From Candidatus Magasanikiibacteriota bacterium (lineage in GTDB: Bacteria; Patescibacteriota; Patescibacteriia; Magasanikbacterales; UBA922), in the NCBI GenBank assembly GCA_014729395.1, contig WJJZ01000002.1:673-64672 (forward strand): DNA of 64,000 nt, in the 5' to 3' direction. Below, piece by piece: positions 1-51,250 of this stretch. How positions within the stretch are numbered: position 1 is the stretch's first letter; the number at the start of each line of letters is the position of its first letter. The position numbers and the translations under genes are program-made. Below the pieces are notes generated by a model. The model saw nothing but the letters and a program-made list of their open reading frames with translations. It did not search any database and was not told where the DNA came from.

Positions 1-266
1 TCAAATTTTACAAGATAATCAACATGTTCTACTATTTCATTTCTAAGCTCATTGATATCTTTCTTTGTCGCCATAGTTGAATGAGTATCATAAATGTCTG
101 TATGAATATTTTCAATATCGTTTTTGAGTTCTGTTCTTAATTCATTGATGTCATCTTTTGTAGTCATTCTACTGTTTATGCCTGCGATATCGTCTTGAGT
201 AGCTCCATTATTTTTGATGAAACTAACCACTTCCCAGATATCTTTTATTGTAGGTTCATTAGTCAT
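1..266 (-). CDS. Coiled-coil repeat protein, paralog 1 (3' end cut off by the window edge)
   Basis: The minus-strand ATG is the complement of 264-266. It translates MTNEPTIKDIWEVVSFIKNNGATQDDIAG...DINELRNEIVEHVDYLVKF. This closely matches the N- and C-terminal blocks of the ORFs at 3594-4004 and 12332-12661. There is no stop before position 1. Confidence 0.6.
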   Translation of the reverse strand, partial: MTNEPTIKDIWEVVSFIKNNGATQDDIAGINSRMTTKDDINELRTELKNDIENIHTDIYDTHSTMATKKDINELRNEIVEHVDYLVKF

Positions 267-600
267 AAAACCATGTTATTAGTAAATAAATTATATTAAT
301 TATAATAACATAAGTCAAACAGAATTTAGTTAAAAAAAGATAAAATCGGTATAAAAAAATTATAAAATTTGGTCTGCTGTTGAACTTTGGACTCAATTGG
401 TTAACTCTTAAGAGTTAATTGTCAAAAGTTGAGTGTGAAGTTTGATGGCTAGAGCTATCTTGAACATTAAAATTGGAATTTAAAATATTGAATTTAGAAT
501 TTCGATTGAATTACAAATTTTTAAATTTATAAATTTAAAATTGATTCATAATTCGAAATTTGAAATTCAAAATTAAAACACGTACTTTCTTCCTCATTAT

Positions 601-720
601 TTTTTACTTGCGTATTTGTCATTCCCGCGAAGGCGGGAATCCAGTAAGCGGTATATGAGCCATGGATGACAATTTCCTGGATTCCCGATCAAGTCGGGAA
701 TGACATTTGAAAAAGTAAGA
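601..720. repeat. GC-rich REP/MITE-like palindromic element, copy 1
   Basis: Two perfect hairpins, ATTCCCGC-GAAG-GCGGGAAT and ATTCCCGA-TCAAG-TCGGGAAT, sit in inverted arms GTCATTCCCG...CGGGAATGAC. They are flanked by an imperfect outer inverted repeat ttactt.../...aagtaaga. The same 10-mers recur at 51138-51250. Confidence 0.7.
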
Positions 721-1010
721 AGTAGTGAGGAAGAAACAGGGGATTCTGCGCCAGCCAGCGCGGGACGGTAGATTGTTCAAGTGGTATTCCGACGGGGGTC
801 GGAAGAGCAATTTATTGACATAACCACGACTCCAACCCCTTCCCGCTTTAGCTCTAACAGTCTAAAAATATAGACGATGACGGAGCAGGGCTTAGGAAGA
901 TAAGGTTGGGGGAAATTGTATCCCCAGCAAACCAACGGCCGAGATATCCGTTTCGGCCAGAGACCAAAGGTCGGGATGGAAACCGACCGAACACAGAAAA
1001 GGATTGAGAC

Positions 1011-1853
1011 ATGAACAAGCACAACATAGAAGTGGTGTTCGAATACGGCAAGACGGTAGAGGGCGAGCAGAACATGCAGCCCAACACCATCTACATCGAC
1101 GGCTCCTTCCGGGGGCCGGCGATCCGGAACGACATCCGGACGTACAGCTTCGACCACCACGCGGGTTGCTCGCGGTTCGCCACCCTGGCGACCTGCGAGC
1201 AGGTGCTGCTCGCCATGGATCTCGGCCTGGACGTGTCGGGGATGACGGTCGTGATGAACGACCTCGATGCTGATGGCAGTCTCAGCCTGTGGCTCCTCCG
1301 CAACCCTAAGAAGTCGCAGACCCCCGAGATCCGCGCCATCGTCAAGGAGATCGGCTTCGTCGATGCGCACGGTCCCGTGCGTACCCCGGCCAAGCTCCAC
1401 AAGAGCCTGAGCCGCAACCCCCGCGTCCCGCAGACGATCGACATGCTCTGGGACGACCAGGGCAAGATCGACGCGTGGTACGAGAGGGGTGACGAGGCGC
1501 TCTCCGAGCCGTTCAGCTTCCCGCCCGCGCCGGCTTTCGGGCTGACGCAGGAGGGCGAGCTGGTGGAGCTCGAGAGCGCCGCCGACTTCGCCGAGGTCTA
1601 CGCCGCCGGCTGCGTCGCCGCCGTGATGGTACCCGAGGGCCCCGAGGGAACCAAGGGTTACACGATCGGCAAGCGCAGCGACTTCGTGAGCTACGACGTG
1701 CAGGCCTTCCTGGCCAGCATGAACGAGCTCGAGAAGGGCTGGGGCGGAGGGTCCACCATCGGTGGTGCCCCCCGTCTCGACGGTGGCAAGCGGTCGAGCC
1801 TGCCGGTGGAGACGGTCAAGTCCGTCTTCCTGGCGATCGCCCGCGGCGAGTAG
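1011..1853 (+). CDS. Hypothetical protein, 280 aa, GC-rich (contains FDHHAGC and DLDADGS motifs)
   Basis: An AAGGA sequence lies 6 nt upstream of the ATG. GC3 codon bias is high and uniform across the ORF. The full-length antisense ORF at 777..1865 is treated as a GC artefact. No confident family assignment could be made. A DHH-like tripeptide is present, but the order of motifs does not fit the DHH family. Confidence 0.55.
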   Translation: MNKHNIEVVFEYGKTVEGEQNMQPNTIYIDGSFRGPAIRNDIRTYSFDHHAGCSRFATLATCEQVLLAMDLGLDVSGMTVVMNDLDADGSLSLWLLRNPKKSQTPEIRAIVKEIGFVDAHGPVRTPAKLHKSLSRNPRVPQTIDMLWDDQGKIDAWYERGDEALSEPFSFPPAPAFGLTQEGELVELESAADFAEVYAAGCVAAVMVPEGPEGTKGYTIGKRSDFVSYDVQAFLASMNELEKGWGGGSTIGGAPRLDGGKRSSLPVETVKSVFLAIARGE

Positions 1854-2103
1854 CACAAGTCGCAATCACGCGACAAACCTCCCCAGCGTCACAGGGTACG
1901 CTGGAATAGGGAGGTTTACTAACCCTAAGCTAGTTGGCTAGAAAGGAGATAGTGTTATGGCTACACTACCAACTTTCAACTGGCAGTCCCGACCGTTTGG
2001 GACAAGGTGCTTCGCAGCCTTAAATGCGGCGGCAGACCCTACCCTTCGCGAGGGTAAGGCAGAGTCTGCGACGGAAGCCATCCCTCGCAAAAAAATTCAA
2101 ACG

Positions 2104-2484
2104 GCGTCTAACCCCAAAACAAAAGAGTAACCTGTGGGCGAGGGCGCAAGAGCTGATTTCTAGTGGAGTTCTTTCACATTAGCTCGAAACGAGTTGACCG
2201 CTCTATTCTGAGTAGGGTCAACAGCACTTGGGATAGGAAGTAGACGCACGCACATGCAACACTACTTCCTACCCGTCACATCTTACTTAAAGTTTAGGTG
2301 AGAGGTGATGGGGGAAAGGCTGAAAAAGCTTGAAAAGCTGGAAAGGCTTAAAAGGCTCGAGATTGGGTATTTGTGATTAGTGATTGAAGTTGTAATAGTT
2401 GTAAGAGTGGAAGATTAAGATTAAAACAGTAAATTGTAAGTAGTAACTAGTAATTAGCTTTTTGCTTGGTCTAGTTTAAAATTT
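2104..2484 (+). repeat. Direct repeat copy A
   Basis: Positions 2268-2484 are near-identical to 3290-3501. Upstream of that, conserved islands (CTAACCCCAA, GGGCGAGGGCGCAAGAGCTG, CTCTATTCTGA, GTTGACC, GGATAGGAAG...CTTCCTACCCGTCACATCTTACT) are separated by diverged spacers. Some stems carry compensatory changes (GGAAGTAG/CTACTTCC versus GGAAGAC/ATCTTCC). The repeat has three parts: a structured GC-rich segment, a micro-ORF and AT-rich iteron-like pseudo-repeats. Confidence 0.8.
2308..2376 (+). CDS. Conserved micro-ORF, 22 aa (MGERLKKLEKLERLKRLEIGYL), copy A
   Basis: GAGAGG lies 4 nt upstream of the ATG. The stop is TGA. An identical peptide is encoded at 3325-3393. The peptide has heptad-like K/L periodicity. 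Translation is not proven. Confidence 0.35.
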   Translation: MGERLKKLEKLERLKRLEIGYL

Positions 2485-2496
2485 ACAGATTTCTCT

Positions 2497-2582
2497 CTAT
2501 TAATAAACTTTGTCCAAAAAACAGAGTTTGGCAATAGAGAGAAATCTCGAACCGGTTTCTCCACCCCCGGTGGGTGGAGAAC
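2497..2582 (+). promoter_or_regulatory. Long inverted repeat plus GC hairpin directly upstream of the mCpol-like gene
   Basis: GATTTCTCTCTATT (2497-2510) pairs with AATAGAGAGAAATC (2535-2548). The loop itself contains aaactttg/cagagttt. This is followed by TCTCCACCC-ccggt-GGGTGGAGA at 2558-2580. Confidence 0.5.
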
Positions 2583-2630
2583 GCAAGCCGCCATAGGAGC
2601 GGACCGGTAAAGAATAAAATGAGGGCCGAC

Positions 2631-3080
2631 ATGCTATATCTAGCATTTGATGGCGATAACGTCGGCTCTCAACTCTCTCAGCTCATTGAGCTGGGCGAGG
2701 ATCGAGAGCTGGCGGCATACGCCGCCGGAGTGCAAGAAGAAATGTTCGAGACGGCGCGAGCTGCCGAGCGCATTGGGGCTACGGTCCTAATGTGTTCGGG
2801 GGACAGTTTGCTGTTCCGTCTCGAACATAAGAGTCAGGCGGAGCGTATCTTATATACGTTCCGCCATAGAAAGAAAAGGTTCGTCACCCATTCTGTGGGC
2901 GTGGGGCGGACCGTTCAGGAAGCCCACAAGAAATTGATGCATGCAAAGCTTGCCGGTAAAAACCGGGTGTGCTGGTATTACGAGCCAGCTCCTCTCGGGA
3001 GGCTTGTAATAGAGTCACTATTGCACCCGTTAGTGGCTCTAAAAAACTTTCACTTCAAAGGTTTTTTTCTTTGGAAGTGA
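2631..3080 (+). CDS. mCpol-like minimal palm-domain nucleotide cyclase (predicted), about 149 aa
   Basis: GAGGG lies 5 nt upstream of the ATG at 2631. LYLAFDGDNVG (strand 1, acidic pair) and LMCSGDSLLF (a hairpin equivalent to GGDD or GGDEF) are the hallmark motifs of RRM-like palm cyclases (Cas10 Palm, GGDEF, class III cyclases). The small size fits the minimal CRISPR polymerase family. Alternative starts at 2574 and 2619 are less likely. Confidence 0.6.
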   Translation: MLYLAFDGDNVGSQLSQLIELGEDRELAAYAAGVQEEMFETARAAERIGATVLMCSGDSLLFRLEHKSQAERILYTFRHRKKRFVTHSVGVGRTVQEAHKKLMHAKLAGKNRVCWYYEPAPLGRLVIESLLHPLVALKNFHFKGFFLWK

Positions 3081-3101
3081 AAGTTTCACCCACGTCAGAT
3101 G

Positions 3102-3501
3102 GCGCCTAACCCCAATAACATAACCACTTCTGGGGTGAGGGCGCAAGAGCTGCAAATTCTAAGCGAGATTCTCTCGTGGCAGCTCGAGACATGGTCGGCT
3201 TTACTCTATTCTGAAGCTAAAGTTGACCACACACCGTGAATCTATCCGGTTCACGGGCACTCGGATAGGAAGACAGCACATCTTCCTACCCGTCACATCT
3301 TACTGAGTTTATCAGTGGGAGGTGATGGGGGAAAGGCTGAAAAAGCTTGAAAAGCTGGAAAGGCTTAAAAGGCTCGAGATTGGGTATTTGTGATTAGTGA
3401 TTGAAGTTTTAATAGTTGTAAGAGTAGAAGATTAAGATTAAAACAGTAAATTGTAAGTAGTAATTAGCAATTAGCTTTTTGCTTGGTCTAGTTTAAAATT
3501 T
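3102..3501 (+). repeat. Direct repeat copy B
   Basis: See copy A. This copy contains the B-specific hairpin CCGTGAA-tctatcc-GGTTCACGG. Confidence 0.8.
3325..3393 (+). CDS. Conserved micro-ORF, 22 aa, copy B (peptide identical to copy A)
   Basis: GGGAGG lies 4 nt upstream of the ATG. The 69 nt are identical in both copies apart from their flanks. Confidence 0.35.
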   Translation: MGERLKKLEKLERLKRLEIGYL

Positions 3502-3593
3502 TGCTAATTTCTATTTACAAATTACCATTTACTGATTACTTTTTTGCTGAAGTCTGCCTGTCCGCCTCTGGCGGAATAGCCGAGAGCTGATTG

Positions 3594-4004
3594 CTAATTG
3601 ATCGGATTATTTTTCTTTATAACAAGATCCAGCTTTTTGTCAGTTCGGTCTTGTCTAAGAGAAAGAGTGTTATCGTTTTTTACCAGAAAATCAACATGTT
3701 CAGTTATTTCGAGTCTAAGTTCATTTAAATCCATTCTTGTAGCCATGGTATTATGAATTTCATCAAGTTCCCGATGAATTGACGCAATATCATCCTTGGT
3801 AGCCATATCACGACGAACGTCTGCAATATCAGTTTTAAGTTCACCCCTCAATTCATAAATGTCAGTCTTGAGTTCAGTTCTTAATTTGTCTATGTCAGTC
3901 TTGAGTTCAGTTTTGAGTTTACTAAAGTCATCTTTGGTAGATCCATTATCCTTGATAAAGTTAATGACCTCATAGACGTCTTTGATTGTAGGATCTTTTT
4001 TCAT
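3594..4004 (-). CDS. Coiled-coil repeat protein, paralog 2 (about 136 aa; repeats LKTELKTDIxxLR x3 and ATKDDI)
   Basis: The start is taken at MKKDPTIKDVYEV. The longer ORF-track start at 4055 translates AT-rich upstream DNA. An in-frame 33-bp tandem DNA repeat lies at 3850-3930. AT-rich composition contrasts with the GC-rich blocks on both sides. Confidence 0.7.
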   Translation of the reverse strand: MKKDPTIKDVYEVINFIKDNGSTKDDFSKLKTELKTDIDKLRTELKTDIYELRGELKTDIADVRRDMATKDDIASIHRELDEIHNTMATRMDLNELRLEITEHVDFLVKNDNTLSLRQDRTDKKLDLVIKKNNPIN

Positions 4005-4159
4005 AGTAATGTCACTTATTAAATAAATTATATAAATTATAATATCAAAAAGCAAATAAAATTATGATAAAAAAATTATTAAATTTATATAAACAAATTT
4101 TGAATCAATATTGAATTAGTAAATTTTAAATTAATAATTCAATCGAAATTCAAAATTTA

Positions 4160-4260
4160 AAATCAATCTAACCACCACGAATAACCACCACACACAAAGA
4201 GGGTTCTAGCTAGACCTCTTTGGGAGATATTTTTCTGTGGTGGTTAGATATCGACCAAAA
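4160..4260. repeat. Nested palindrome at the AT/GC junction
   Basis: Outer inverted repeat ATCTAACCACCAC (4166-4178) pairs with GTGGTGGTTAGAT (4238-4250). The inner hairpin CAAAGAGG-gttctagctaga-CCTCTTTG has a loop UUCUAGCUA that resembles the preQ1-I aptamer loop. Confidence 0.6.
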
Positions 4261-4265
4261 GGTCT

Positions 4266-4305
4266 AAAAAAGAGTCTTCTTGATCTGAGAAGGCTCTTTT
4301 TGTTT
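4266..4305 (+). terminator. Intrinsic terminator-like hairpin 20 nt before the GNAT RBS (possible attenuator)
   Basis: AAAAGAGTCTTCT-tgatctg-AGAAGGCTCTTTT is followed by TTTTTGTTT. The AAGGAGG RBS and the ATG at 4327 follow immediately. Confidence 0.55.
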
Positions 4306-4326
4306 AAAAAAAAGGAGGAAAAAAAA

Positions 4327-4743
4327 ATGACCGAGATTATTGACATGAACAGGTTGGCCCGTTTCGTATCTGGGCTGAAGCCATCGGCGCACGTCGCTAT
4401 TCTCTTCACTGGAGACCGACTGGCTTGCTGCGATGAAGCGGTGACTTTGCGAGTTGGGTGCGAGATTGTTGGCGTGGCCACGATTGCTCCCGAAGGGGAA
4501 GAGTATACGGGTCAGCCGACGATTGTGGCTCTATATATAGAGCCCGGGTATCGTCGACGCGGCCATGGCACTACCCTCATGAAGTCGGCGCTTGAGCGCT
4601 GCCGGGAACGTGGCTTTGAGACTGTCCGAGTTGATGTCATGTCCGACCATGTTATGAAAATCATCCGTAGTTTGCCGGCTGAACTGGCGACCATCTTGGA
4701 TGTCCATGATATGGGGGCCATGATGGACTCATTTCGAGGATAG
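4327..4743 (+). CDS. GNAT family N-acetyltransferase (138 aa)
   Basis: AAGGAGG RBS. The acetyl-CoA motif A, IEPGYRRRGHGTTLMKSALERCRERG, has the form Q/R-x-x-G-x-G/A. Confidence 0.8.
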   Translation: MTEIIDMNRLARFVSGLKPSAHVAILFTGDRLACCDEAVTLRVGCEIVGVATIAPEGEEYTGQPTIVALYIEPGYRRRGHGTTLMKSALERCRERGFETVRVDVMSDHVMKIIRSLPAELATILDVHDMGAMMDSFRG

Positions 4744-4845
4744 ATTATTTAAAAGGAGGATTCAAGGAGGAATCTTCCTCAGTTTTTAAAATATTTGAAG
4801 ATTGAGGAAGCATCACGAATGGGTCGTGATGCAAAAGGTTTTAAA

Positions 4846-4949
4846 AACCAAGGCCCGGTCTACCTGTGGTGGATGTCGCGTCGCTTGAATCAACAAGCGA
4901 TCCCGAAATTACTCGGGAGGAGCTACACTGGTTTTTGAAGGAGGAAGAG
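4846..4949 (+). promoter_or_regulatory. Conserved structured 5' leader element, type 1, copy 1
   Basis: AACCAAGGCCCGG...GTCGCTTG-aatcaa-CAAGCGAT, then CCCGA-aattac-TCGGG, then GAGGAGCTACACTGGTTTTT, then GAAGGAGG-N6-ATG. Also at 10027, 19850 and 21459. Confidence 0.7.
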
Positions 4950-5183
4950 ATGAAAAGAAAGATGGGCCTATGGCCCATGTGTATTTGCGGAGTAGAGCTC
5001 GCCGACGGGCACGAACTGTGTCCTGAGTGCGAGCAGGTGGAGGCCGACGGCCGCTGTTTGGGCTGCCGTCGGCCTGTCGAGGATGGACACCGAAGTCAGA
5101 TCGGGTTGTGCCCGGTCTGTACTGAATTGGTTCTTGACGGCGTGGAAGAGGCACGCCGCGAGACCATGTCTATCCCCGACTAA
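4950..5183 (+). CDS. Small zinc-ribbon protein (77 aa; CxC, CPEC, CLGC, CPVC)
   Basis: A GGAGG RBS lies directly after the type-1 leader. Four Cys pairs are present. The terminator hairpin T1 follows. Confidence 0.5.
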   Translation: MKRKMGLWPMCICGVELADGHELCPECEQVEADGRCLGCRRPVEDGHRSQIGLCPVCTELVLDGVEEARRETMSIPD

Positions 5184-5220
5184 AAACCGGTCATTCTAGG
5201 TGATCGCATACGTTCTTTCA

Positions 5221-5262
5221 ACACACAGGCACACATCCTAGACCCTGTGTGCCTCTACTTTT
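5221..5262 (+). terminator. Conserved-loop terminator hairpin T1 (GGCACACA-TCCTAGACCC-TGTGTGCC plus a T-rich tail)
   Basis: Member of a family of 5-6 hairpins. The loop TCCTAGACCCTG is invariant and the stems show compensatory changes. A conserved block TTCTGAAAGCG lies at 5285-5295. Confidence 0.65.
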
Positions 5263-5535
5263 AGAGATTGTAAATATTTATGATTTCTGAAAGCGTTTTG
5301 ATTTTGAAAAAATTGAAGCGTGTGATCGTTTTAAAAAAACCGTCTGACAAGGGCGGATGAAAATATAGAGAAAAGAGACCTTGGGCAGCCCTGCCCGGTT
5401 GGTTGTGTTACTAAACCTAAAAGTTATAGCGCACAGCAAGTCGATTTAGTTCGGCCGAGCAGGGTGGGTATGCCTCGACAGATGTCGGGGTAAGCGTTGC
5501 CGTAAGGCGCGCTACCGCTGCTTGAGGAGTCCAAG

Positions 5536-8500
5536 ATGACGAAGTCGAAAAAAAAGGGTTCCTGCAAGCCTTCGAGTGCGGGAATCAATGATTTGCCAAT
5601 CGTTGATTTTAAGGATGAGATCATGGGGAGTAGCGCCCCCTACATCATTGTCGAAGCCGAGACCGGCTCCGGCAAGTCGACTATGGTGCCCCAGTGGTTC
5701 CATGAGCTCGACATGTCGGTGCTCGTGACCGAGCCGTTGATTGAGACGGTAATCGGTACGAGCGAGTACGTGGCCCAGCTCATGGGCTGCGAGTTCGGCT
5801 CGACGGTCGGTTATCGTACGGGCAGTAGCCGGTGCGACAGCCGGGAGACTGATGTGCTTTTTTGCACGGACGGTCTTGCGCTCGTGCGCGAGTTGTCGGG
5901 ACACAATCGTTTCGACGTGCTCGTCATCGACGAGCTCCACGAGTGGAATACTAATCAGTCCACTCTGGAGGCCTGGGCGTGGAAGCATCTTCAGGCGGGC
6001 GATAGCCCGTTCCAAAAGATCGTGGTGCTGTCGGCCACTTTGAACTCGGACGAGCTCTCGCGCAAGCGGGGCAATGCTCCGGTGTTCAAGGTTCCCGGTC
6101 GACAGTTCCCGATCGAGGATCGGCGTGCCGGTTCGTCGATCGAGGCGGACGTGAAGTCGCTCGTCGCCGAGGGGCACGACGTCCTGGTCTTCCAGCCTGG
6201 GGCAAACGAGATCCGTGAGACCATCCAGACGCTCGAGCGTATGGAGGTCAATGCGGAGCTCATCCCGTTTTACGGGAAGCTCAGCCGGGAGGACAAGACC
6301 AGGGCGTACCGGTCGTACGGTCGTTCCAAGGTGGTGGTTTCGACCAACGCTTTGGAGACCGGCCGAACACTTGTGCCGTCACCCGGGCGCAAGCTCGCGG
6401 TCGTTGACTCCGGGCTCGAAAAGCGAGTGGAGCTCGACAATGATGGAATCGAGGGTTTGTACCTGGAGCCCATCGCCAAGGCTAAGGCCATGCAGCGTCG
6501 CGGTCGCACGGGTCGCGTTGGTGAGGGGATCTATATTGATCATTGTCCCTCCGCCGGCCGTCCGGCGTACCCCGTACCGGAAATTCTCCGGACGCGACTC
6601 GACCAGACCGTTTTGCGGTTGGCGTGTCATGGGTACGACGCGACCGAGCTTCCCTTCTTCCACGAGCTCGACATGAGCGTCATCGCGGAGGCCAAGCGGG
6701 CTCTGCAGGCGCTCGGAGCGATGCGGGAGGATGGAGACGTGACCAAGACGGGGCGTCTCATGTCCCGTCTGCCGGTCTCGGTCGGTCAGGCGCGGATGAT
6801 TATCGAGGCGGACAAGCGTGGTGTGGTGGACGATGTGATCACCATCGCCGCGATCTTGAACGTCAAGGGCATTTGTGACCGCACCGGAGCGTGGCGGGCG
6901 TACACCGTCGAGAAGCGTTCCGATGTTTTGGTCGAGCTGGACCTCTGGCAGGCCGCTCGTGGCAAGCGGAATCGCGAGCTGCGGGACATGGGGATCTTCG
7001 CCAAGGATTACCAACGAGCACGGCAGATCCGCCGCAAGCTCGTGGACGTCTTGCGACAGCATCGCGTGAAGCTGGGTTCGTCCGGCGATCGCGAAGAGAT
7101 CCTCAAGTCGGTTTGCGCCGGTATGGTCGACCACCTGTACAAGTTTTCTCATACAGACAGGATGGGGAACTGGTACGTAAATGGTGGGTCGTCCACTGCG
7201 CGGTTGCTTGGCAACCAGAGTGTGGTGGATGGCGGCCCGGACTGGCTGGTCGCGATTGGGTTCAATGTGCCGACCCGAAAGGGAGGCACACTCCCGATCG
7301 TCACGCAGGTGACGGCGGTTGAGCCCATGTGGCTCGCCGAGGTCGCTCCACAGCTGGTTGAGGTCAAAACCGGTCTCTCCCCCCGGTATGACCAGGAGAA
7401 GGACCTCGTGACTTCGGTCACCGAGATGTACTTCAACGGTCAGAAGGTGCGGGAAGAGAGGGTTGATGACCCGACTCATCCGGAGGCTGCGAGGCTTTTC
7501 GCCCAATATCTGGCAAGCCGTAACGATGTCGAGCCAATGTGTTCGAATTGTCGTCAGGCAAACCGGATGAAAGAGCTCAACATTCGGGCCGGCGAGGACA
7601 TCTTCCCGGTACCCGACATGGCGAGCTTCTACCAGGAGCGACTGAATGGTGCTCGTTCGATCCAAGAGATCGAGCCGGGTACCAGCCTCCGTTTGCCCAC
7701 CCTCGACGAGGAGCTCGTCAAGATGGTGATGGATGAAAATCCTGATACCATTCAACTCCTCGGAGAAGAGTTGACGGTGGAGTATCGGGCGCCATATTAT
7801 GGCCAGCCCAGAGCTCCGCGTGTGAAGCTCACGGATGAGCTCGTCAGCACGAATCGCTGGCTCGAGCTTCCGGACGAGGGAGTGTGGCTCCCGAGCGGTC
7901 GCTCAGTAGAGCTGGTGGTGTCCTTTGGGCACTACAATGAGCTCTCTGGGACCGACATCCCGAAGTTGAAGGTTGAGATGAGAGATTATCTCAACCGGAA
8001 GCAGTGGGATTCTTGGGTCAAGCCCGAGATCGAGATTCCGGATCTGTCGGCCGATGACGCCGTCGTCCCGTTTGTCACCAAGGTCTATGGGACCTGTGTT
8101 ACAACGGGTGACGAGCTCATGGCCTACGGTACAATAGCCGTGAACACGAGTCGCTGGTATGCAAGTGATCCGCTGTTCAAGGCCATGTGGTACCGCGATT
8201 TGATCGCGGCCCAGAACGCCGCCGACGCCTCCGCCGAGAAGCTCGTCGAGAAAAAAGATGAGCTGAAAGCGGCGAGGGCGCTCGAGCTGGCGAAGACCGA
8301 GGCTGAGGCCGCGCGCAAGGAGCTCCAAAATCTCAAGGGTCGTGAAGACTGGGAAGAGCTGGAGTACGACTTGCGGAGTCGAGTTAGCGACTTGCTCTAC
8401 CGCTCGTTGCCGCGCTCCATCGATGAACTTCGAGAGGATATTGAATCCACCAAGGCACTGATTGCCGAAGTGGAGAGTGCACTCGAGAAGTTCGAGAACG

Positions 8501-9507
8501 AGCGTGAGGCGGAAGAACAGCGCCTGCTCGAGGCCGAGGAGCGCGGAGAAATCCTGCGCGACTTCGAAGCCTGGCATCGCCGGGGCGGTATGACCGGCAA
8601 CGGAGACGGCTGGGTGATACGGCCGGACGGCAGCCTCCGCGACCGTGACAGTGATACAGTGCCACGCTACAAGCACGATGGCCAGTATCACTGGGACATG
8701 GTCAAGCCGGAGGAGCTGGCTCTCAGCTGGCGCTGCAGCACCAGGCGCGACGTCGACGGCACGAGCGACTTTAAAGTCGTGAAGGTGCCTGTCGACGGTG
8801 TGACGTCGGAGCAACTGCGCCGGGTGGAGGAGATCGAAGACGGTATCGGTGCAAGCCGTGGCGCTTTCGGCCTCCACGCCGAGATCACCCGCCGCAACGA
8901 GGAGCGTCTCGAGGCCTGCCGTGAGGCAGCTCTCAATGCTCGGGTGCGCGGTTCCCAGATCCTACGGAAGTTGCCGGAGACCTTCAGCTGGTTGAAGCTT
9001 GCCGGTGACGGCGTTCTCAACCTTGAGCACTATGTGGAGGACAGGAATGTCTTCCGCTACGTCAACTGGGCAGCAGAGTACGTGGGAGTCTGCGACAACC
9101 GCGACGCCTTTCTTCTCTTCGAGACAACCGCGGCCGATGGCAAGTTGCAGTTCGTCGTATATGAAAAATACGGCTCGAGCGACAACCTGGCTGTCCGCTG
9201 GCGGGAATTCACGGAAGAGGAGCTCGCTCAGCAGGCCGAGCATGAGACGCCCCAAGGCGACGGCCATTTCGTCGAGCGCTCCACCCGCCATTTCGCTTGC
9301 GATTGTGGTGGAACGACTCGGATAACCAAGTCCGAGTGGAAGCGCTACCGGCGAGGTGAGGTGCTGGAGCTCACCTGCACCCACTGCGGAGCTACCGGCA
9401 CTGTCTGCAAGGAAGCGGACGAAGAGCCGGAGGCGAAGCAGAACGGGAACGGCTCGAGCGGAGGCGGCGCCTCGATGGCCGATCTCATGGCCAAGTTCAA
9501 TCGCTGA
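5536..9507 (+). CDS. DEAH-box (HrpA/HrpB-like) ATP-dependent helicase with HA2 domain and long C-terminal extension, 1323 aa
   Basis: Walker A AETGSGKST, the DEAH box VIDELHEW, SATL, TNALETG, QRRGRTGR and an HA2-like block RLMSRLPVSVGQARMII...IAAILN are all present. The C-terminal roughly 600 aa has predicted coiled coil (residues about 890-1010) and a CxC...CxxC zinc knuckle near the end. It is not the DUF3418 tail found in E. coli HrpA. Confidence 0.85.
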   Translation: MTKSKKKGSCKPSSAGINDLPIVDFKDEIMGSSAPYIIVEAETGSGKSTMVPQWFHELDMSVLVTEPLIETVIGTSEYVAQLMGCEFGSTVGYRTGSSRCDSRETDVLFCTDGLALVRELSGHNRFDVLVIDELHEWNTNQSTLEAWAWKHLQAGDSPFQKIVVLSATLNSDELSRKRGNAPVFKVPGRQFPIEDRRAGSSIEADVKSLVAEGHDVLVFQPGANEIRETIQTLERMEVNAELIPFYGKLSREDKTRAYRSYGRSKVVVSTNALETGRTLVPSPGRKLAVVDSGLEKRVELDNDGIEGLYLEPIAKAKAMQRRGRTGRVGEGIYIDHCPSAGRPAYPVPEILRTRLDQTVLRLACHGYDATELPFFHELDMSVIAEAKRALQALGAMREDGDVTKTGRLMSRLPVSVGQARMIIEADKRGVVDDVITIAAILNVKGICDRTGAWRAYTVEKRSDVLVELDLWQAARGKRNRELRDMGIFAKDYQRARQIRRKLVDVLRQHRVKLGSSGDREEILKSVCAGMVDHLYKFSHTDRMGNWYVNGGSSTARLLGNQSVVDGGPDWLVAIGFNVPTRKGGTLPIVTQVTAVEPMWLAEVAPQLVEVKTGLSPRYDQEKDLVTSVTEMYFNGQKVREERVDDPTHPEAARLFAQYLASRNDVEPMCSNCRQANRMKELNIRAGEDIFPVPDMASFYQERLNGARSIQEIEPGTSLRLPTLDEELVKMVMDENPDTIQLLGEELTVEYRAPYYGQPRAPRVKLTDELVSTNRWLELPDEGVWLPSGRSVELVVSFGHYNELSGTDIPKLKVEMRDYLNRKQWDSWVKPEIEIPDLSADDAVVPFVTKVYGTCVTTGDELMAYGTIAVNTSRWYASDPLFKAMWYRDLIAAQNAADASAEKLVEKKDELKAARALELAKTEAEAARKELQNLKGREDWEELEYDLRSRVSDLLYRSLPRSIDELREDIESTKALIAEVESALEKFENEREAEEQRLLEAEERGEILRDFEAWHRRGGMTGNGDGWVIRPDGSLRDRDSDTVPRYKHDGQYHWDMVKPEELALSWRCSTRRDVDGTSDFKVVKVPVDGVTSEQLRRVEEIEDGIGASRGAFGLHAEITRRNEERLEACREAALNARVRGSQILRKLPETFSWLKLAGDGVLNLEHYVEDRNVFRYVNWAAEYVGVCDNRDAFLLFETTAADGKLQFVVYEKYGSSDNLAVRWREFTEEELAQQAEHETPQGDGHFVERSTRHFACDCGGTTRITKSEWKRYRRGEVLELTCTHCGATGTVCKEADEEPEAKQNGNGSSGGGASMADLMAKFNR

Positions 9508-9635
9508 CAATTCAACCGGCCTGACCACAAGAAAACAGGGCCGGATAAAAAATAATATGTTTTCTGCGGAAAAACCGGCGGCCGTCCCAATAGGGAATAG
9601 AGCCGGTTTACATATATGTTCTTTTTTGGTAATTT

Positions 9636-9665
9636 TGGGGACAGGACTGAACATCCTAGTCCCCA
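9636..9665 (+). terminator. Variant of the conserved-loop hairpin (TGGGGA...ACATCCTAG-TCCCCA), T6
   Basis: It shares ATCCTAG with the T1-T5 loop. It lies 130 nt downstream of the helicase stop. At 9574-9612, an AAACCGGC/GCCGGTTT hairpin and a T-run precede it. Confidence 0.35.
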
Positions 9666-9737
9666 CCCTTCACTACTTATTTAAAATTTAGATAAGTGTT
9701 GAAGGGAAATTGGTTCCCTTCAGCAGAGGGAGGTGTC

Positions 9738-10016
9738 ATGAAAAGAGAGATAGTTGTCGCGGACAGGGACTTTGAAGTGTACCGACCGGAGCGCCGGTAC
9801 TACCGCCTAGATCGTAGGCACTGGGATCTGGAGCCTGGTACCCGGGTGACCGTGAAGGTGTGGCGGAAAAAAGGTCGCTACAAGATTCTGAGTGCGGTCG
9901 TTGTTGAATTTTTTTACTGGTGTCAGTGTGGGGTTTGTGACCCCACCTATTTCAAGGCCGCTATGCTGAACCGCCATTTCGACGGTAAGCTGAAGCGAAA
10001 GGATACAGACTATTAG
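9738..10016 (+). CDS. Hypothetical small protein, 92 aa
   Basis: GGGAGG lies 5 nt upstream of the ATG. GC-rich. Contains CQCGVCD. Confidence 0.4.
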   Translation: MKREIVVADRDFEVYRPERRYYRLDRRHWDLEPGTRVTVKVWRKKGRYKILSAVVVEFFYWCQCGVCDPTYFKAAMLNRHFDGKLKRKDTDY

Positions 10017-10026
10017 AAAACAAAAA

Positions 10027-10157
10027 AACCAAGGCCCGACTTGCCTGTCTGCTTTACAAAGTGGTGAAGAGATTGGCAGGTGTCGTGTTGCCTGAATCAA
10101 CAGGCAAGCTTGGGATTTTCCCAGGTGGAGCTACACTGGTTTTGAAAGGGGTAAGAG
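10027..10157 (+). promoter_or_regulatory. Type-1 leader element, diverged copy 2
   Basis: The same architecture is kept with compensatory stems: TTGCCTG-aatcaa-CAGGCAA and TGGGA-ttt-TCCCA. GAGCTACACTGGTTTT is conserved. An RBS and the ATG at 10158 follow. Confidence 0.65.
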
Positions 10158-10640
10158 ATGAAGAAAATCACGGACGCTTGTAACGAGCAGAGCTCAGTGG
10201 TCATCCAGGTGGCCGGAGGGTACATGAAGTGGTACCCGGCAGATGAGCAGAGGAGAGTGGAGTTCTACCTCCAGGGAATCGAAATCGATCCCCGGGTTCA
10301 GGCGGTGGATTTGCTCCTTGCCATGAACCAAGACGATGACATGGTGTTATGTAGCATCAATTGTCCGTCATTGGTACTTCCAATGGAAGTGATCGAGGAG
10401 AACGAACTCCTCATCGCCGATGGTGCTGTCTGGTTCAGGCGACCGTCCAGTGAAGGTGGTGAGCGCTACCCCGAGCCACCATCGAGATTGCGGTACACGG
10501 TCAAGGCACCTGGGGGATTTTCTCCGTGGGGTACGACCAACTGCCTCGAAGAGGCGCAGAGAATCCAACAAAAAGCTCTTGAGGAGGGTGTTGAGGACAT
10601 CGGTATCCGGGAAAATTCGAGTGGCAAATATCTAGGGTAA
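10158..10640 (+). CDS. Hypothetical protein, 160 aa
   Basis: Preceded by the type-1 leader and followed by T2. GC-rich. Confidence 0.5.
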   Translation: MKKITDACNEQSSVVIQVAGGYMKWYPADEQRRVEFYLQGIEIDPRVQAVDLLLAMNQDDDMVLCSINCPSLVLPMEVIEENELLIADGAVWFRRPSSEGGERYPEPPSRLRYTVKAPGGFSPWGTTNCLEEAQRIQQKALEEGVEDIGIRENSSGKYLG

Positions 10641-10669
10641 TGAATGTCGTTAGAAAAATTTTTAACCTC

Positions 10670-10712
10670 CGGGCACACATCCTAGACCCTGTGTGTCCAT
10701 TCTTTCAAAGAT
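10670..10712 (+). terminator. Conserved-loop terminator hairpin T2
   Basis: GGCACACA-TCCTAGACCC-TGTGTGTCC plus TTCTTTC. A TTGAAAGCAC block follows at about 10731. Confidence 0.65.
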
Positions 10713-10863
10713 CATAATAATTTGTGGTTTTTGAAAGCACCGTCTACTTGTGTTAGGCGGTGCAAGAAGCTTTGTTAAAAATATCTTTGCAGCCTCTAAT
10801 TATTTGATAATTAGAATCTCTCTCCGCTGCAATCTATATTTTTGATAAAAGCAAAAAATAAAA

Positions 10864-10900
10864 TCCCGCTTTGGCTCTAGTCCACAGCGGGGTTTTGTTT
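10864..10900 (+). terminator. Intrinsic terminator at the right edge of GC island A
   Basis: CCCGCT...AGCGGG stem plus TTTTGTTTT. Composition switches to AT-rich immediately after. Confidence 0.5.
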
Positions 10901-10964
10901 TCATATTTATTTTGCTATTATTAAACTAATCTTATTTTGATCAATTTATATTAAATTATAAAAT

Positions 10965-12305
10965 ATGAGAGAAGATGTTACATTAAACAAATCAGCAGCA
11001 AGATTTAATTCTGATATTCCGGAAATTGATAATGACAGAGAAAACTATCTGCAGGAAGTAAAAAATAATAGGAAAATATTAATCAGAGATATGGCAGCTG
11101 ATGATGAACTTTCCGACATTAATCCGGACAAAATGCTAGCTAAACTTCAAACTGATTGGCTTGAGAAAATTAGCAAAGAACAAAAAGATTTGATAGCCGG
11201 TCATGTTGATTTGGATTTTATTGAAAAAAGCGTTTTTAGTTATGATTACGAAGAACTTGTTTTGCATGTTTTGCTTTTAAATCAACTGGCAAAGGAATTT
11301 TATATTATCAGACCGTTTTCATGGAAAAGTGAGGAACTTGGTTTGTTTGATGAAGAGCTTGAAGAATATAATGAAAAAAGAGAAGGGATTTCAAGTAAAT
11401 TTTATGAGATCAAAGAAATAGTATTGGCCAAAGCTTGTCAGCTGGCATCTTTTCAGGCCCCTGAATTTAGCTATGGTTTGGATGAGGATGGTGGTACTCC
11501 TATTTTATATTTTGATTTACCGGGTTATGGTCAGTTTAGTTTTCACATGCCAAATATTAACCAACCTTATAGATCTAATGAACATATTGCAAAACTCTAT
11601 AAAATTCTTGATATACCCAAGTATCATGGAGACTGGAAACAAAGAAATAAACGGCCTATATCTCGAATGACAACAGAAAAAGCCGAAGAAATAATTGCTG
11701 AAGGGGAACATATTGTGTCATTGGAAGATATTGAGCAGTATCTCAGTGAAAGAGAAGATATTAACCCCAAAAAAGCACACGATTTATATTTTAGGGCAAT
11801 GGCCCATCCGGATTTCCATAAAAATAAAGAGAAAATTGATGAATTACTTTTCAAACATGCGCCCACTGTTCCCGGAGCTTTGTCCCAAGCCTATCTAGAT
11901 GGTTTTGATTTGCCCTATAAGTATTATTCAAAAAAAATTAAGAAACGTGAACCATGGATGGATCATCTATATCCAACTTATCATGATATAATTTTTTATA
12001 TTGAAGAGTTAGATGCCTTGTTGGATTTTGCACAAAAAAATCAACCAAACGAAGAGTTAAAAGAGTCGACATTTTATGATCTTGAAGAATTGGAGCAACA
12101 AAAAACAAAAGTAGAGACTGATACGAATTTGGTGAAACAAAAATTAAACAGAATATTAAAACCGGCCTTACTTTTTTATCTGGAAGACGATAATCGTTAT
12201 GACGTCCCTCTGAGAAGAAAGATATACAACAAATTAGAAAAATTACTGGAAAGGTTTAATATGGAATTAGGCGATTACTTGACCGGGGATCAATTTGTCG
12301 GTTAA
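10965..12305 (+). CDS. Hypothetical acidic protein, 446 aa (AT-rich, host-like codon usage)
   Basis: Long uninterrupted ORF with no recognisable motifs. Confidence 0.6.
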   Translation: MREDVTLNKSAARFNSDIPEIDNDRENYLQEVKNNRKILIRDMAADDELSDINPDKMLAKLQTDWLEKISKEQKDLIAGHVDLDFIEKSVFSYDYEELVLHVLLLNQLAKEFYIIRPFSWKSEELGLFDEELEEYNEKREGISSKFYEIKEIVLAKACQLASFQAPEFSYGLDEDGGTPILYFDLPGYGQFSFHMPNINQPYRSNEHIAKLYKILDIPKYHGDWKQRNKRPISRMTTEKAEEIIAEGEHIVSLEDIEQYLSEREDINPKKAHDLYFRAMAHPDFHKNKEKIDELLFKHAPTVPGALSQAYLDGFDLPYKYYSKKIKKREPWMDHLYPTYHDIIFYIEELDALLDFAQKNQPNEELKESTFYDLEELEQQKTKVETDTNLVKQKLNRILKPALLFYLEDDNRYDVPLRRKIYNKLEKLLERFNMELGDYLTGDQFVG

Positions 12306-12331
12306 TAAATGGTAGGTTCCAAGAGTTTTTT

Positions 12332-12661
12332 TTAGTTCAGCTTCAAATTATTTTTTCTAATAATCAAATCCAATTTTTTTTCAGTTTTGTCTTGTCTAAG
12401 AGCAAGAGCGGTATCATTTTTTACCAGAAAATCAACATGCTCAGTTATTTCAAGCCTAAGTTCATTTAAATCCCTTCTGGTAGCCATGGTATTGTGAATT
12501 TCATCAAGTTCTCGGTGAATTGACGCAATATCGTCTTTAGTAGCCATGTTCTTGATATCGTCTTTAGTAGCCATGTTTGCCAGGTCATCTTTGTTAGCGG
12601 CATTTTCACTCATAAATTGAATGATCTCATAGACGTCTTTGATTGTAGGATCTTTTTTCAT
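12332..12661 (-). CDS. Coiled-coil repeat protein, paralog 3 (about 109 aa; NMATKDDI repeats)
   Basis: N- and C-terminal blocks near-identical to paralog 2. An in-frame 27-bp tandem repeat lies at 12521-12575. The upstream promoter region is shared with the other copies. Confidence 0.7.
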   Translation of the reverse strand: MKKDPTIKDVYEIIQFMSENAANKDDLANMATKDDIKNMATKDDIASIHRELDEIHNTMATRRDLNELRLEITEHVDFLVKNDTALALRQDKTEKKLDLIIRKNNLKLN

Positions 12662-12744
12662 AATAAAATTATTTATCAAATAAATTATATTAATTATCAT
12701 ATCAAAAAGCAAATGAAGTTTTGATAAAAAAATTATAAAATTTA

Positions 12745-12787
12745 TGTGAGTAAAAAATTAAACAAACCCCATATAAGAGGTTTGTTT
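12745..12787 (-). terminator. recA intrinsic terminator (minus strand)
   Basis: AAACAAACC-ccatataaga-GGTTTGTTT, followed on the minus strand by a T-run. Confidence 0.6.
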
Positions 12788-12820: not shown

Positions 12821-13885
12821 TTATTTATCAACCGTTTCTTTTTCTCCAGGCTTACCCTTTTCCTCTTCAGGTGCTTCACCTCTTTCAACGGCTTCCCAAA
12901 TTTTCTTTTCAATTTTTTTCATCATTTTTGGGTGTTCTCTTAGAAATAGTTTTGCTTTTTCTCTACCAACGCCGAGTTTTTCTTCTCCAAAACTATATGT
13001 ATTACCCGATTTATTGACGACCTTGTGTTCAATTCCGGAATCAAGCAAATCACCTGATATGGAAATTCCTTCATTGTACATGATATCAAATACGGTTGTT
13101 CTAAATGGTGCAGCCACCTTGTTTTTTACCACTTTTACTTTTACGCGATTCCCAATTACCCGGTCACCTTGTTTTATTTGGGCAGAGCGACGGACTTCTA
13201 TCCTAACAGAAGAATAAAATTTCAGAGCATTACCACCGGTAGTGGTTTCGGGGTTGCCAAAAAACACCCCTATCTTATGTCTGGTTTGATTTATGAAGAC
13301 TACCGAAGTCTTGGTCTTACTGACAATGCCGGCCAGTTTTCGAAGAGCTTGACTCATAAGACGAGCTTGCAGGCCCATGTGAGAATCTCCCATCTCACCT
13401 TCGATTTCAGCCTTAGGGACAAGCGCAGCCACTGAATCTATCACGACCACATCCACAGCATTTGACCTAACCAGAGTTTCCAGGATTTCCAAGGCCTGTT
13501 CACCGGTGTCGGGTTGGGATATTAGCAAGTTATCTACATCCACACCGATTTTTCTGGCATAATCCGGATCAAGAGCATGCTCGGCATCAATAAAAGCGGC
13601 AATGCCATCTTTTTTTTGAACTTCTGCGATAATATGTTGGGCCAATGTGGTTTTACCACTGGATTCTGGGCCAAATACCTCAATAATTCTACCTCTTGGT
13701 ACACCTTTTACACCAAGGGCGATGTCAAGCGAGATTGAACCGGTAGAGACCGCTTCCACTTGCATGGCGCGGGCCTCGGAGAATTTCATAATTGAACCAT
13801 CACCGTATTTTTGTTTAATTTGACCAATGGCGGTTTCAGCCGCTTTAAATTTGGCTTTTTGTTCATCGGTTTGTTTTTTGGGCAT
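12821..13885 (-). CDS. recA: Recombinase RecA
   Basis: Walker [10 protein letters not shown] and canonical RecA blocks across 354 aa. Confidence 0.97.
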
Positions 13886-13955: not shown

Positions 13956-14348
13956 TTAGTTTCTAATTTTATTAATAAAGGAATTAAGTTTTTTCGTCAG
14001 CTTTTTGTACTCTTGATCAAGATTTTTAAATTCCTCCTCACTTGTATATTTATTACCAAATGCGACTGATAAGTGGCTGCGTGTTTCCATTATTTCACCT
14101 CTTGCAATGTAAAATACTCTGACTTTATCTTTATAAAAATAACGTCCATGAGCTTCGGCAATATTAGCTATTATGGAATTAGCTGACCTTGTTATTTGAC
14201 TTTTTAGGGAATATTTTTCAAATTCTGGAAAAGTAGCGGATAATTTATAAATTTTCATTAATAAATTATATCCTTCTTTCCAAATTTCCAACTCATGGAA
14301 TTCTTTGTACATTTTTTGTTTGTTAAATTGGCAATTATAATGGGTCAA
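13956..14348 (-). CDS. Four-helix-bundle protein (23S rRNA IVS-type, TIGR02436-like)
   Basis: LEIWKEGYNL...RSANSIIANIAEAHGR...ARGEIMETRSHL. Confidence 0.8.
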   Translation of the reverse strand: MTHYNCQFNKQKMYKEFHELEIWKEGYNLLMKIYKLSATFPEFEKYSLKSQITRSANSIIANIAEAHGRYFYKDKVRVFYIARGEIMETRSHLSVAFGNKYTSEEEFKNLDQEYKKLTKKLNSFINKIRN

Positions 14349-24500: not shown

Positions 24501-24556
24501 CTGCCTGCCGGCAGGCAGGCGTATATCTGCATTATAGGCGTATATCTGCATTATAA
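24501..24556. repeat. 20-bp perfect palindrome CCTGCCTGCCGGCAGGCAGG followed by tandem 18-mer GGCGTATATCTGCATTATA x2
   Basis: Read directly from the sequence. Confidence 0.7.
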
Positions 24557-51137: not shown

Positions 51138-51250
51138 GGGCGTTTGTCATTCCCGTCCCCGTCTGCACGAGGATAAACTCCAGCGGGAATCCAGGAGAGA
51201 AGTTCGTTGTAATATGCTTGATTCCCGCCTTCGCGGGAATGACACGATGC
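51138..51250. repeat. GC-rich REP/MITE-like palindromic element, copy 2
   Basis: GTCATTCCCG...CGGGAATCCAG and ATTCCCGC-CTTC-GCGGGAAT. The latter is the exact reverse complement of the copy-1 hairpin. Confidence 0.7.

Follow-up and report, generated by a model that had tools for sequence, protein, structure and literature searches.

Genes for putative beta-layer coiled-coil rods flank GC-rich islands next to recA in a Magasanikbacteria genome

It is known that nonads of the MATKDDIAN type form "beta-layers" in a parallel trimer, which gives rise to an alpha/beta coiled coil (Hartmann et al. 2016, eLife, PMC4786415). Stalks with beta-layers are part of crenarchaeal PD-(D/E)XK nucleases (DUF3782) and of trimeric autotransporter adhesins and are also known from bacterial proteins without a nuclease, Tcar0761 among them; the stalk of DUF1640 proteins begins with a beta-layer motif (PMC4786415). 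No function has been reported in the literature for the nuclease-less proteins. Here, we describe three paralogous genes encoding coiled-coil proteins of this kind in a 64,000-nucleotide stretch of a Candidatus Magasanikiibacteriota genome (assembly GCA_014729395.1, contig WJJZ01000002.1, positions 673 to 64,672), hereafter called the window. On balance, it seems probable that these genes are residents of the host genome which encode length-tunable rods and mark a hotspot for insertions downstream of recA, with the extra copies as old duplicates.

The window proteins resemble the Tcar0761 type (PMC4786415; PDB 5APZ) in the nonad spacing of the beta-layer motif, in the lack of a nuclease domain and in the repetitive, length-variable stalk. 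They are, however, much shorter, with 2-3 consecutive nonads against 14, and the family is further distinguished by its own N- and C-terminal helices without a Pfam model, by hendecads mixed in with the nonads and by its restriction to Patescibacteria. With the DUF1640/CCDC90-like proteins (PF07798; MCUR1, CCDC90B and prokaryotic homologues), they share a beta-layer at the start of the trimeric stalk and hendecad-like ELKxDIxxLRxE repeats; repeats of this kind led to the sub-threshold Pfam match and to most of the distant matches described below. DUF1640 proteins are membrane-anchored, whereas the window proteins seem to be soluble, have neither a C-terminal transmembrane helix nor a head domain and score below the gathering threshold. 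The distant DUF1640-like matches do end in hydrophobic helices, unlike the window copies. Another comparison is offered by DUF16, which has many paralogs of no known function in a reduced genome. The DUF16 paralogs of Mycoplasma pneumoniae (MPN010, PDB 2BA2) are likewise small, consist of coiled coil only and contain beta-layers, but they belong to a different taxon and show no significant sequence relationship to the window proteins. We know of no link between DUF16 and GC-rich islands.

As for the arrangement of the genes, integration hotspots or "minimal mobile elements" flanked by conserved genes are known in naturally transformable bacteria (Neisseria), as are tandem islands flanked by repeated target genes. 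In the present case also, recA, the coiled-coil gene and, in relatives, TrmB flank differing cargo, no mobility gene lies inside, and the target is repeated directly. The differences are that exchange at the present locus is putative, that the repeated flank is an intact gene with its promoter, and that the cargo is GC-rich in AT-rich hosts. As for the repeats, the streptococcal M and alpha C proteins show in-frame variation of repeat number in secreted, wall-anchored antigens under immune selection. They are similar to the present family in that whole structural units are gained or lost via DNA repeats, with a change in length and retention of the fold; unlike them, the window proteins appear to be small cytoplasmic rods without an export signal.

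What is new is a family specific to the candidate phyla radiation (CPR) with an already published fold, and the bracketing of GC-rich islands by its genes is apparently undescribed. A term search of an overview of horizontal transfer in Patescibacteria, which reports many genomic islands, gave no mention of the recA-adjacent locus. A structural identity is thus assigned to an unannotated family which is common in CPR bacteria, and natural gain and loss of whole coiled-coil units at the strain level mean that its proteins behave as length-tunable rods. At the recA-adjacent locus, AT-rich CPR genomes gather GC-rich defence-like genes (mCpol and a HrpA-like helicase; Csx3 and MoxR-VWA in relatives), which makes it a landmark for gene flow and immunity in organisms so far uncultured. 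As a structural repeat protein, the rod is ordinary; worth following are the hotspot, its conserved modules of non-coding DNA and the cargo, which is persistently rich in GC.

Distribution and fold of the coiled-coil family

A first family profile was built from the three window copies and searched against 1.84 billion cluster representatives, of which 321 matched at E<=1e-3. The full-length members have 100-160 aa and share both termini. With a second profile, built from 24 members, 442 proteins were found at E<=1e-5. Wherever the source name of these proteins stated an organism, it was of Magasanikbacteria, Uhrbacteria, Parcubacteria or the Patescibacteria group, except for two repeat-only matches from Candidatus Poribacteria and the archaeon Sulfuracidifex. 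The annotation of every full-length member is "hypothetical", and no Pfam family has been assigned to their conserved ends. These ends are an N-terminal helix, T[IL]xDILEIVxFIKDNAATKDDL, and a C-terminal helix, E[IM]xxH[VI]DGFIGLH...ELAAL..R..R.E; the central part varies in unit type (9-, 11- or 13-residue) and in unit number. Judged from these matches, this is a previously unannotated family of small proteins restricted to Patescibacteria. A word-indexed search with copy 2 returned only copy 3 and proteins sharing the ELKTDIAELR repeat, most of which end in a membrane helix. When GTDB genomes and JGI metagenomes were scanned with back-translated patterns of the three window copies, no relatives were obtained; a tighter alignment of 8 sequences was used for the scan with success. 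Nothing meaningful was obtained for the coiled-coil genes with PADLOC and PHROGs.

In the window, the family hidden Markov model (HMM) gave exactly three matches (E 1e-29 to 1e-33; Table 1), which bears out a sequence-only reading made earlier that had proposed three paralogs with different repeat units and unit numbers (33-bp hendecads versus 27-bp nonads). The full-length protein of copy 1 (P0147) has 122 aa, 88 of whose codons lie in the window. The common termini claimed for copies 2 and 3 are also real: the DNA identity is 87% at one terminus (3606-3806 and 12347-12547) and 82% at the other, which includes about 100 nt upstream (3927-4108 and 12584-12765). Copy 1 is a third variant, as had been supposed, with about 70% DNA identity and 53-56% protein identity to the other two. 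The AT-rich upstream regions, described as similar, are indeed homologous among the copies over 60 nt at 78-82%. A promoter match, TTGACT-17-TATAAT, is located at 318..290 in front of copy 1 (11/12 positions), and that of copy 3 is read as TTGCTT-17-TATAAT at the homologous site, as in copy 2.

Copy 3 matched PDB 5APZ, the crystallised nonad segment of Tcar0761 from Thermosinus, with a phmmer E value of 4.2e-11, and this match spans the heptad-to-nonad transition. The E value of the family profile against 5APZ was 3.6e-9. Furthermore, a stretch of 54 aa in copy 3 has 57% identity with the stalk in a PD-(D/E)XK nuclease from Sulfuracidifex, a likeness which corresponds to the relationship described in PMC4786415. 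The beta-layer motif, [aliphatic]-A-T-K-[polar]-[DE], is present as AANKDD, MATKDD (twice) and MATRRD in copy 3, as GSTKDD, MATKDD and MATRMD in copy 2, and as GATQDD, MTTKDD and MATKKD in copy 1. Consecutive motifs are in nonad spacing in copy 3 only, where they start at residues 21, 30 and 39; copy 2 has 11-residue units instead. In the AlphaFold2 monomer model of copy 3 (mean predicted local distance difference test score, pLDDT, of 81.6), the protein is an all-helical rod, and the only breaks of the helix are at the four [AM]A[TN][KR] motifs (residues 21-23, 31-32, 40-41 and 59-61). A Foldseek search with this rod was uninformative. A parallel homotrimer with beta-layers is considered to be the most likely arrangement.

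The relation to DUF1640 had been put forward tentatively. It pointed to the right structural motif, the beta-layer (PMC4786415); as a family assignment it did not hold, the membrane helix being absent and the score of copy 2 against PF07798 (CCDC90-like, the former DUF1640) being 20.2 bits at a gathering cut-off of 33.5 (E 5.7e-4). Neither copy 1 nor copy 3 matched PF07798; of the 24 family members, 7 did so at E<=0.01. For PF12644 (DUF3782), there was no match at E<=0.1 with any copy, and it was not among the 25 families most matched by the 24 members; PF01519 (DUF16) was matched by one member (4e-4). The maximum 19-residue Kyte-Doolittle mean was 0.03-0.45 among the copies, so that no hydrophobic, signal or membrane segment is present, and no domain besides the rod and no anchor domain was found in the proteins. 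This means that they are soluble rods, neither membrane proteins of the DUF1640 type nor anchored adhesins.

Central repeats and rod length

The repeat arrays in the central parts of copies 2 and 3 are as the sequence-only reading had described them, except that the coordinates given there (3850-3930 and 12521-12575) were slightly off (Table 1). In Tandem Repeats Finder (TRF), the 33-bp array of copy 2 has 2.6 copies at 3825-3909 (score 93) and the 27-bp array of copy 3 has 2.3 copies at 12530-12592 (score 70); both belong to the four top-scoring tandem repeats of the window. Perfect tandem duplications at 24517-24555 (19 bp x 2.1) and 59418-59454 (18 bp x 2.1), with 100% matches, are also among the top-scoring ones. 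Within the two coiled-coil arrays, the 2-3 units are degenerate, with a mutual identity of 78-85%. The three copies are old and under purifying selection: the synonymous divergence (dS) between copies 2 and 3 is 0.56 and that against copy 1 is saturated (~2), and the ratio of nonsynonymous to synonymous divergence (dN/dS) is 0.15-0.28 among the copies and 0.28 for copy 2 versus copy 3.

Variation of repeat number between strains, as had been suggested, was seen in relatives. Over about 700 nt, locus L002 (ENA) differs from L004 and L005 (JGI) by a single perfect 39-bp unit and is otherwise 100% identical to them; this unit is present in one or two copies in the respective paralog and encodes ATKDDIADIRREM. 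In L091, the closest relative found, a 100-N scaffold gap is located in the perfect 27-bp MATKDDIKN array of the homologous gene. This locus belongs to the public assembly GCA_964433095.1, and the gap is at 9867-9966, inside the coiled-coil gene. Because the gap lies in the repeat array, the annotated product (P0158) has only 91 aa and lacks the N-terminal part. Gain and loss at the strain level in relatives indicate that the number of repeat units is dynamic across the family.

Each protein would thus be a homotrimeric rod composed of the conserved N-terminal helix (core pattern T[IL]xD[IV]xE[IV]xxF[IM]xxN), a variable stalk and the conserved C-terminal helix (E[IM]xxH[VI]D...R..R.E). The stalk units are predicted to keep the coiled-coil register, whether they are nonads (MATKDD beta-layer), hendecads (ELKxDIxxLRx) or, in relatives, 13-residue units (hexad + heptad). 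Whole units may be gained or lost by slippage or by unequal recombination between the 27-, 33- or 39-bp DNA repeats, which would shift the rod length by about 1.3-1.9 nm per unit. According to published structural rules, the length would change without a break of the fold since each unit keeps the register, and such gain and loss would account for paralogs which differ in unit type and number. A role of the rods as a length-setting scaffold or adaptor may be inferred. It should be mentioned that all unit lengths (27, 33 and 39 bp) are multiples of 3 and in frame within the coding sequence; on/off switching, i.e., classical phase variation, is therefore excluded.

GC-rich islands beside recA and the origin of the arrangement

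The DNA between the copies is compositionally foreign, whereas the coiled-coil genes are host-like. The GC content reaches 64% in 1001-2000 and 54-63% in 5001-10000, while values elsewhere in the window are about 27-47%, which confirms the earlier placement of the genes at the edges of foreign DNA. The GC content at third codon positions (GC3) is 0.24, 0.30 and 0.34 in copies 1, 2 and 3, respectively, and 0.30-0.35 in host genes of the window. In the island genes, it is 0.58-0.91 (0.91 in the 280-aa open reading frame (ORF), 0.75 in the helicase gene, and 0.58-0.64 in mCpol, GNAT and others). Copies 1 and 2 flank island A, and copies 2 and 3 flank island B, all in the same orientation, so that the islands lie between direct repeats of the supposed target.

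Comparison with L091 is the basis for reading this region as an insertion hotspot next to recA with resident coiled-coil genes as its bookends. In both loci, recA is on one side and a divergent pair of coiled-coil and GNAT genes is on the other, with different cargo between them. The identity in blastn is 76% for recA (window 12835-13720; the recA Pfam families of L091 were confirmed) and 75-80% for the coiled-coil gene. In contrast, several non-coding modules of the islands are 84-93% identical (leader hairpin, 4183-4281; 3' element, 2093-2314 and 3101-3331; terminator module, 5193-5305 and 10659-10738), which means that pieces of the islands were exchanged more recently than the hosts diverged.

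A host-like coiled-coil gene beside a GC-rich island recurs in L001, L002-L005, L006/L007/L092-L095, L039, L089 and L091. The islands of these relatives contain a homologous helicase or GNAT gene, or DUF3228, PIN, MoxR-VWA, Csx3 or AAA_33 genes, and a TrmB regulator is nearby. In the lineage of L002-L005, too, there are three copies on one strand, with GC-rich genes interspersed among them. When about 19 independent lineages were sampled via the gene itself, about 8 had a GC-rich block within 1 kb. In six genomes (the window and five other CPR genomes), the GC3 of the coiled-coil gene follows that of the host genes, and adjacent island genes are 0.2-0.6 higher. In addition, paralogs of one genome resemble each other more than they resemble those of other genomes. 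Island-free contexts are found in L088 (recG, radA, dprA), L105 (uvrC, uvrA), L109 (parAB/scpB) and L100 (a type IV secretion system gene), and at helicase loci (80 loci of GTDB species representatives) the coiled-coil gene was present within 10 kb in only 2 cases. These four observations, namely the host-tracking GC3, the likeness within genomes, the island-free contexts and the count at the helicase loci, indicate that the coiled-coil gene is not part of the island. Island-free members of the family are often beside genes for repair or segregation (L088, L105 and L109; compare recA in the window), which is a weak lead from few loci with no significant enrichment.

The three genes are accordingly proposed to be resident paralogs of host composition, encoding small (about 100-160 aa) cytoplasmic proteins of Patescibacteria. 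Their three direct copies bracket two GC-rich, presumably horizontally acquired islands of defence-like or nucleic-acid genes, and the extra copies were probably left behind by recombination anchored on the gene, e.g., of the Campbell type or by homology-facilitated illegitimate recombination, after DNA uptake. Accretion by such recombination would explain how the copies arose. A role of the repeats in promoting the exchange of cassettes, as suggested earlier, would agree with the data.

Several observations weigh against this proposal. The longest exact match between the copies is 37 nt (copy 2 versus copy 3; 14-20 nt for copy 1), so that present-day recombination between them would be inefficient. 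Searches of 1-12.7 kb with Pfam, NCBIfam, PADLOC and PHROGs detected no integrase or recombinase, apart from a mere trace, a "Recombinase" match of 0.059 in the host-like 446-aa ORF; no terminal inverted or direct repeats were found at the ends of island B and no target duplications at the island ends. About half of the family loci are without an island, which makes the link to the hotspot lineage-specific and possibly a coincidence of few related lineages, and no partner gene is conserved beside the family. The repeats of the window itself are degenerate, and it is in relatives that variation in length was seen. As for the fold, the structural model is that of a monomer, whose helix breaks are consistent with a trimer and do not prove it. 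In addition, an apparent cassette swap between L006 and L007 (Csx3 versus a 126-aa ORF) had to be discarded as a gene-calling artefact, because the two loci are colinear in blastn at 96.8%.

The coiled-coil gene might instead work with the island genes as a scaffold, sensor or regulator of the helicase/GNAT module and be duplicated along with new modules. Such a partnership would explain its divergent pairing with GNAT or the HrpA-like helicase in the window, L091, L001, L006 and L039, which persists although the coiled-coil proteins of the more distant of these lineages are only about 30-35% identical to those of the window. It also fits the fusion of the crenarchaeal stalk to a nuclease and the high conservation (93%) of the leader between the coiled-coil and GNAT genes. 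We nevertheless regard it as unlikely, in view of the 2/80 helicase loci mentioned above, the absence of any island or helicase from about half of the coiled-coil loci, and a composition which shows that the gene and its neighbours differ in residence history. Both islands lie between direct, full-length copies of the same orientation, the L002 lineage has the same layout, and island modules were exchanged between lineages after the hosts diverged; from this, the gene could be part of a mobile element or an attachment site at which islands integrated site-specifically, bringing or regenerating a copy as tandem islands do at tRNA genes. This explanation is improbable, since the searches of 1-12.7 kb detected no integrase or recombinase, the copies are host-like in GC3 and old (dS 0.56 to ~2) while the cargo is not ameliorated, paralogs are most alike within genomes, and no relatives of the helicase were found in viral contigs.

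The sequence-only reading had likened the genes to a contingency locus and suggested variable proteins of the surface or of adhesion; fast-mutating repeats would then vary the cell surface. The in-frame repeat number indeed differs between near-identical strains of one relative, a perfect array breaks the assembly in another, and beta-layer stalks also occur in trimeric autotransporter adhesins. However, perfect units are present in the relatives only, a change of repeat number would not switch expression because the units are in frame inside the coding sequence, and the products are rods of 109-136 aa with no other domain, whose hydropathy does not exceed 0.45 and in which a signal peptide, a membrane helix and an anchor are all lacking. 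With units that are multiples of 3 bp and 78-85% identical, in old paralogs under purifying selection, a strict contingency locus is very improbable, and the tempting idea of a phase-variable adhesin is corrected here as unsupported; non-classical export of the proteins may still be conceived. The extreme jumps in GC content (31% to 64% within a few hundred bases) might also point to a chimeric contig in which low-GC and high-GC organisms were joined at a repeated sequence. This was rejected as hardly credible, because the junction of low-GC gene and high-GC island recurs in independent NCBI, ENA and JGI assemblies, contigs of different samples are 97-99.9% identical across such junctions, and the helicase family is typical of Patescibacteria.

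The interpretation of the genes as residents that mark a hotspot could be carried further, with a small probability: the coiled-coil genes would be the fixed bookends of an undescribed cassette-exchange hotspot of Patescibacteria, where GC-rich foreign cassettes would move between lineages of widely differing base composition and be captured beside the gene without a recognisable recombinase. Each cassette would bring shared 5' leader and 3' hairpin modules, which are better conserved than recA, and the in-gene repeats would be the recombination substrate. The GC excess of the helicase gene, seen at most of 80 loci including Clostridia, may be linked to the same mobile gene pool.

Island genes, non-coding modules and neighbouring features

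The features of the region are listed in Table 1.

Table 1. Features of the three-copy region (positions in the window)
Feature	Position	Strand	Remarks
Coiled-coil copy 1	1-266	minus	88 codons inside the window, cut by the window edge; HMM E 1e-29
Coiled-coil copy 2	3594-4004	minus	136 aa from ATG + stop; HMM E 1e-33
Coiled-coil copy 3	12332-12661	minus	109 aa + stop; protein identical to NCBI GF349_00785 (Candidatus Magasanikbacteria metagenome-assembled genome, 150-kb contig)
33-bp array of copy 2	3825-3930	minus	3 in-register units (repeat family D5); hendecads LKTELKTDIDK / LRTELKTDIYE / LRGELKTDIAD
27-bp array of copy 3	12528-12592	minus	repeat family D8; nonads NMATKDDIK / NMATKDDIA (beta-layer motif)
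Copy 1 upstream region/promoter	267-370	minus	repeat families D6/D7; AT-rich, conserved
Copy 2 upstream region/promoter	4005-4108	minus	repeat families D4, D6, D7; TTGCTT-17-TATAAT read from the sequence
Copy 3 upstream region/promoter	12662-12787	minus	repeat families D4, D6, D7; preceded by recA terminator hairpin (12787..12760)
recA	12821-13885	minus	conserved host gene flanking the variable region; flank also present in L091
Inverted repeat, 42-nt arms	586-736	.	I2; holds hairpin GTCATTCCCGCGAAGGCGGGAAT resembling repetitive extragenic palindromes (REP-like); host-type sequence, left border of island A
Island A	740-3330	plus	280-aa ORF and mCpol; conserved 3' non-coding element after each gene
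280-aa ORF	1011-1853	plus	island A, GC3 0.91
3' element T1 copy 1	2097-2484	plus	structured core 2097-2300, then AT-rich tail; repeats D1, D13, D16; R1 101.7 bits
mCpol gene	2574-3080	plus	PF18182 E 2.4e-14, GC3 0.58
3' element T1 copy 2	3095-3501	plus	93% identical to T1 copy 1 over 228 nt; R1 100.9 bits
Island B	4183-10740	plus	5 ORFs, duplicated 5' and terminator modules; GC3 0.59-0.75
Imperfect long hairpin + leader	4166-4281	plus	I5; left end of island B, between copy 2 promoter and GNAT start
GNAT	4327-4743	plus	island B
Duplicated 5' modules	4843-4959 / 10024-10167	plus	include ribosome-binding region and start codon; precede 105-aa and 160-aa ORFs
Zinc-ribbon ORF (105 aa)	4866-5183	plus	island B
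Duplicated terminator modules	5193-5305 / 10659-10738	plus	hairpin AGGCACACA...TGTGTGCCT, then T run
HrpA-like DEAH helicase, 1323 aa	5536-9507	plus	island B, GC3 0.75
106-aa ORF	9696-10016	plus	island B
160-aa ORF	10158-10640	plus	island B
446-aa ORF	10965-12305	plus	host-like GC3 0.27; between island B and copy 3

The mCpol of island A belongs to the minimal CRISPR polymerases, which are the signal synthases of the recently described Panoptes anti-phage systems. It is solitary, with no adjacent transmembrane or CARF effector. Relatives hold genes for Csx3-like ring nucleases at the corresponding place (L091 10784-11137; L007 3862-4233). Neither the 280-aa nor the 446-aa ORF has a relative of solved structure, and the former is unrelated to the ORF at the same position in L001. 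The homologues of the helicase of island B are mostly from Patescibacteria, and viral contigs yielded no close relative. In most of the 80 helicase loci (L008-L087), its gene is GC-richer than the flanks, typically by 10-25 points. Besides AT-rich Patescibacteria, even Clostridia show this excess (about 37% versus 27%), which is gone only in GC-rich hosts, e.g., Actinoallomurus. It may be caused by repeated transfer from a GC-rich pool or by a process that maintains the composition.

The structured core of the 3' element T1 is found at 2097-2300 and 3095-3320 and, on the minus strand, at 10418-10622 of L091. It has three hairpins with a few compensatory changes. The element follows three unrelated cassette genes, namely those for the 280-aa ORF, mCpol and Csx3. 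A covariance model (R1) trained on these three copies found only the training copies in the 31 loci searched, which means that T1 is not a general cassette signal. A search of 1-13 kb against Rfam gave nothing at the gathering thresholds, and at E<=1 only chance-level matches to microRNAs and small RNAs.

At the left end of island B, AACCACCAC occurs three times within the hairpin at 4166-4281. The leader at 4183-4281 is 93% identical to L091 9691-9593 (blastn), while the coding sequences of GNAT no longer align by blastn. This hairpin may serve as an operator or as a site of recombination, or it may act as a leader RNA. The 105-aa and 160-aa ORFs are unrelated, yet they have both the 5' leader and the 3' terminator in common, so that each gene looks like a self-contained promoter-gene-terminator module. 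The terminator module is also found after the DUF3228 gene in L091, with 80-91% identity. The arrangement differs from an integron-like array, as there is no integrase and the 3' elements are multi-hairpin modules of 100-400 nt.

The end of the helicase (...SMADLMAKFNR) together with the downstream DNA (9475-9624) is 84% identical to L091 3220-3371, which is the end of an otherwise unrelated 453-aa protein (...TMADLMAKFNS). This shared end may represent a module junction within the coding end or a common C-terminal tag. The REP-like hairpin GTCATTCCCGCGAAGGCGGGAAT at the border of island A occurs once more about 50 kb away (about 51218-51243), and its inverted repeat resembles a miniature transposable element. 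On its other side, recA is adjoined (13956-14348) by the gene of a "23S rRNA intervening sequence protein", which is a four-helix bundle; AT-rich low-complexity spacers of the "gattagtgattag" type surround this gene. A gene for the same kind of protein is present near the coiled-coil gene in L001, at 3679-4044.

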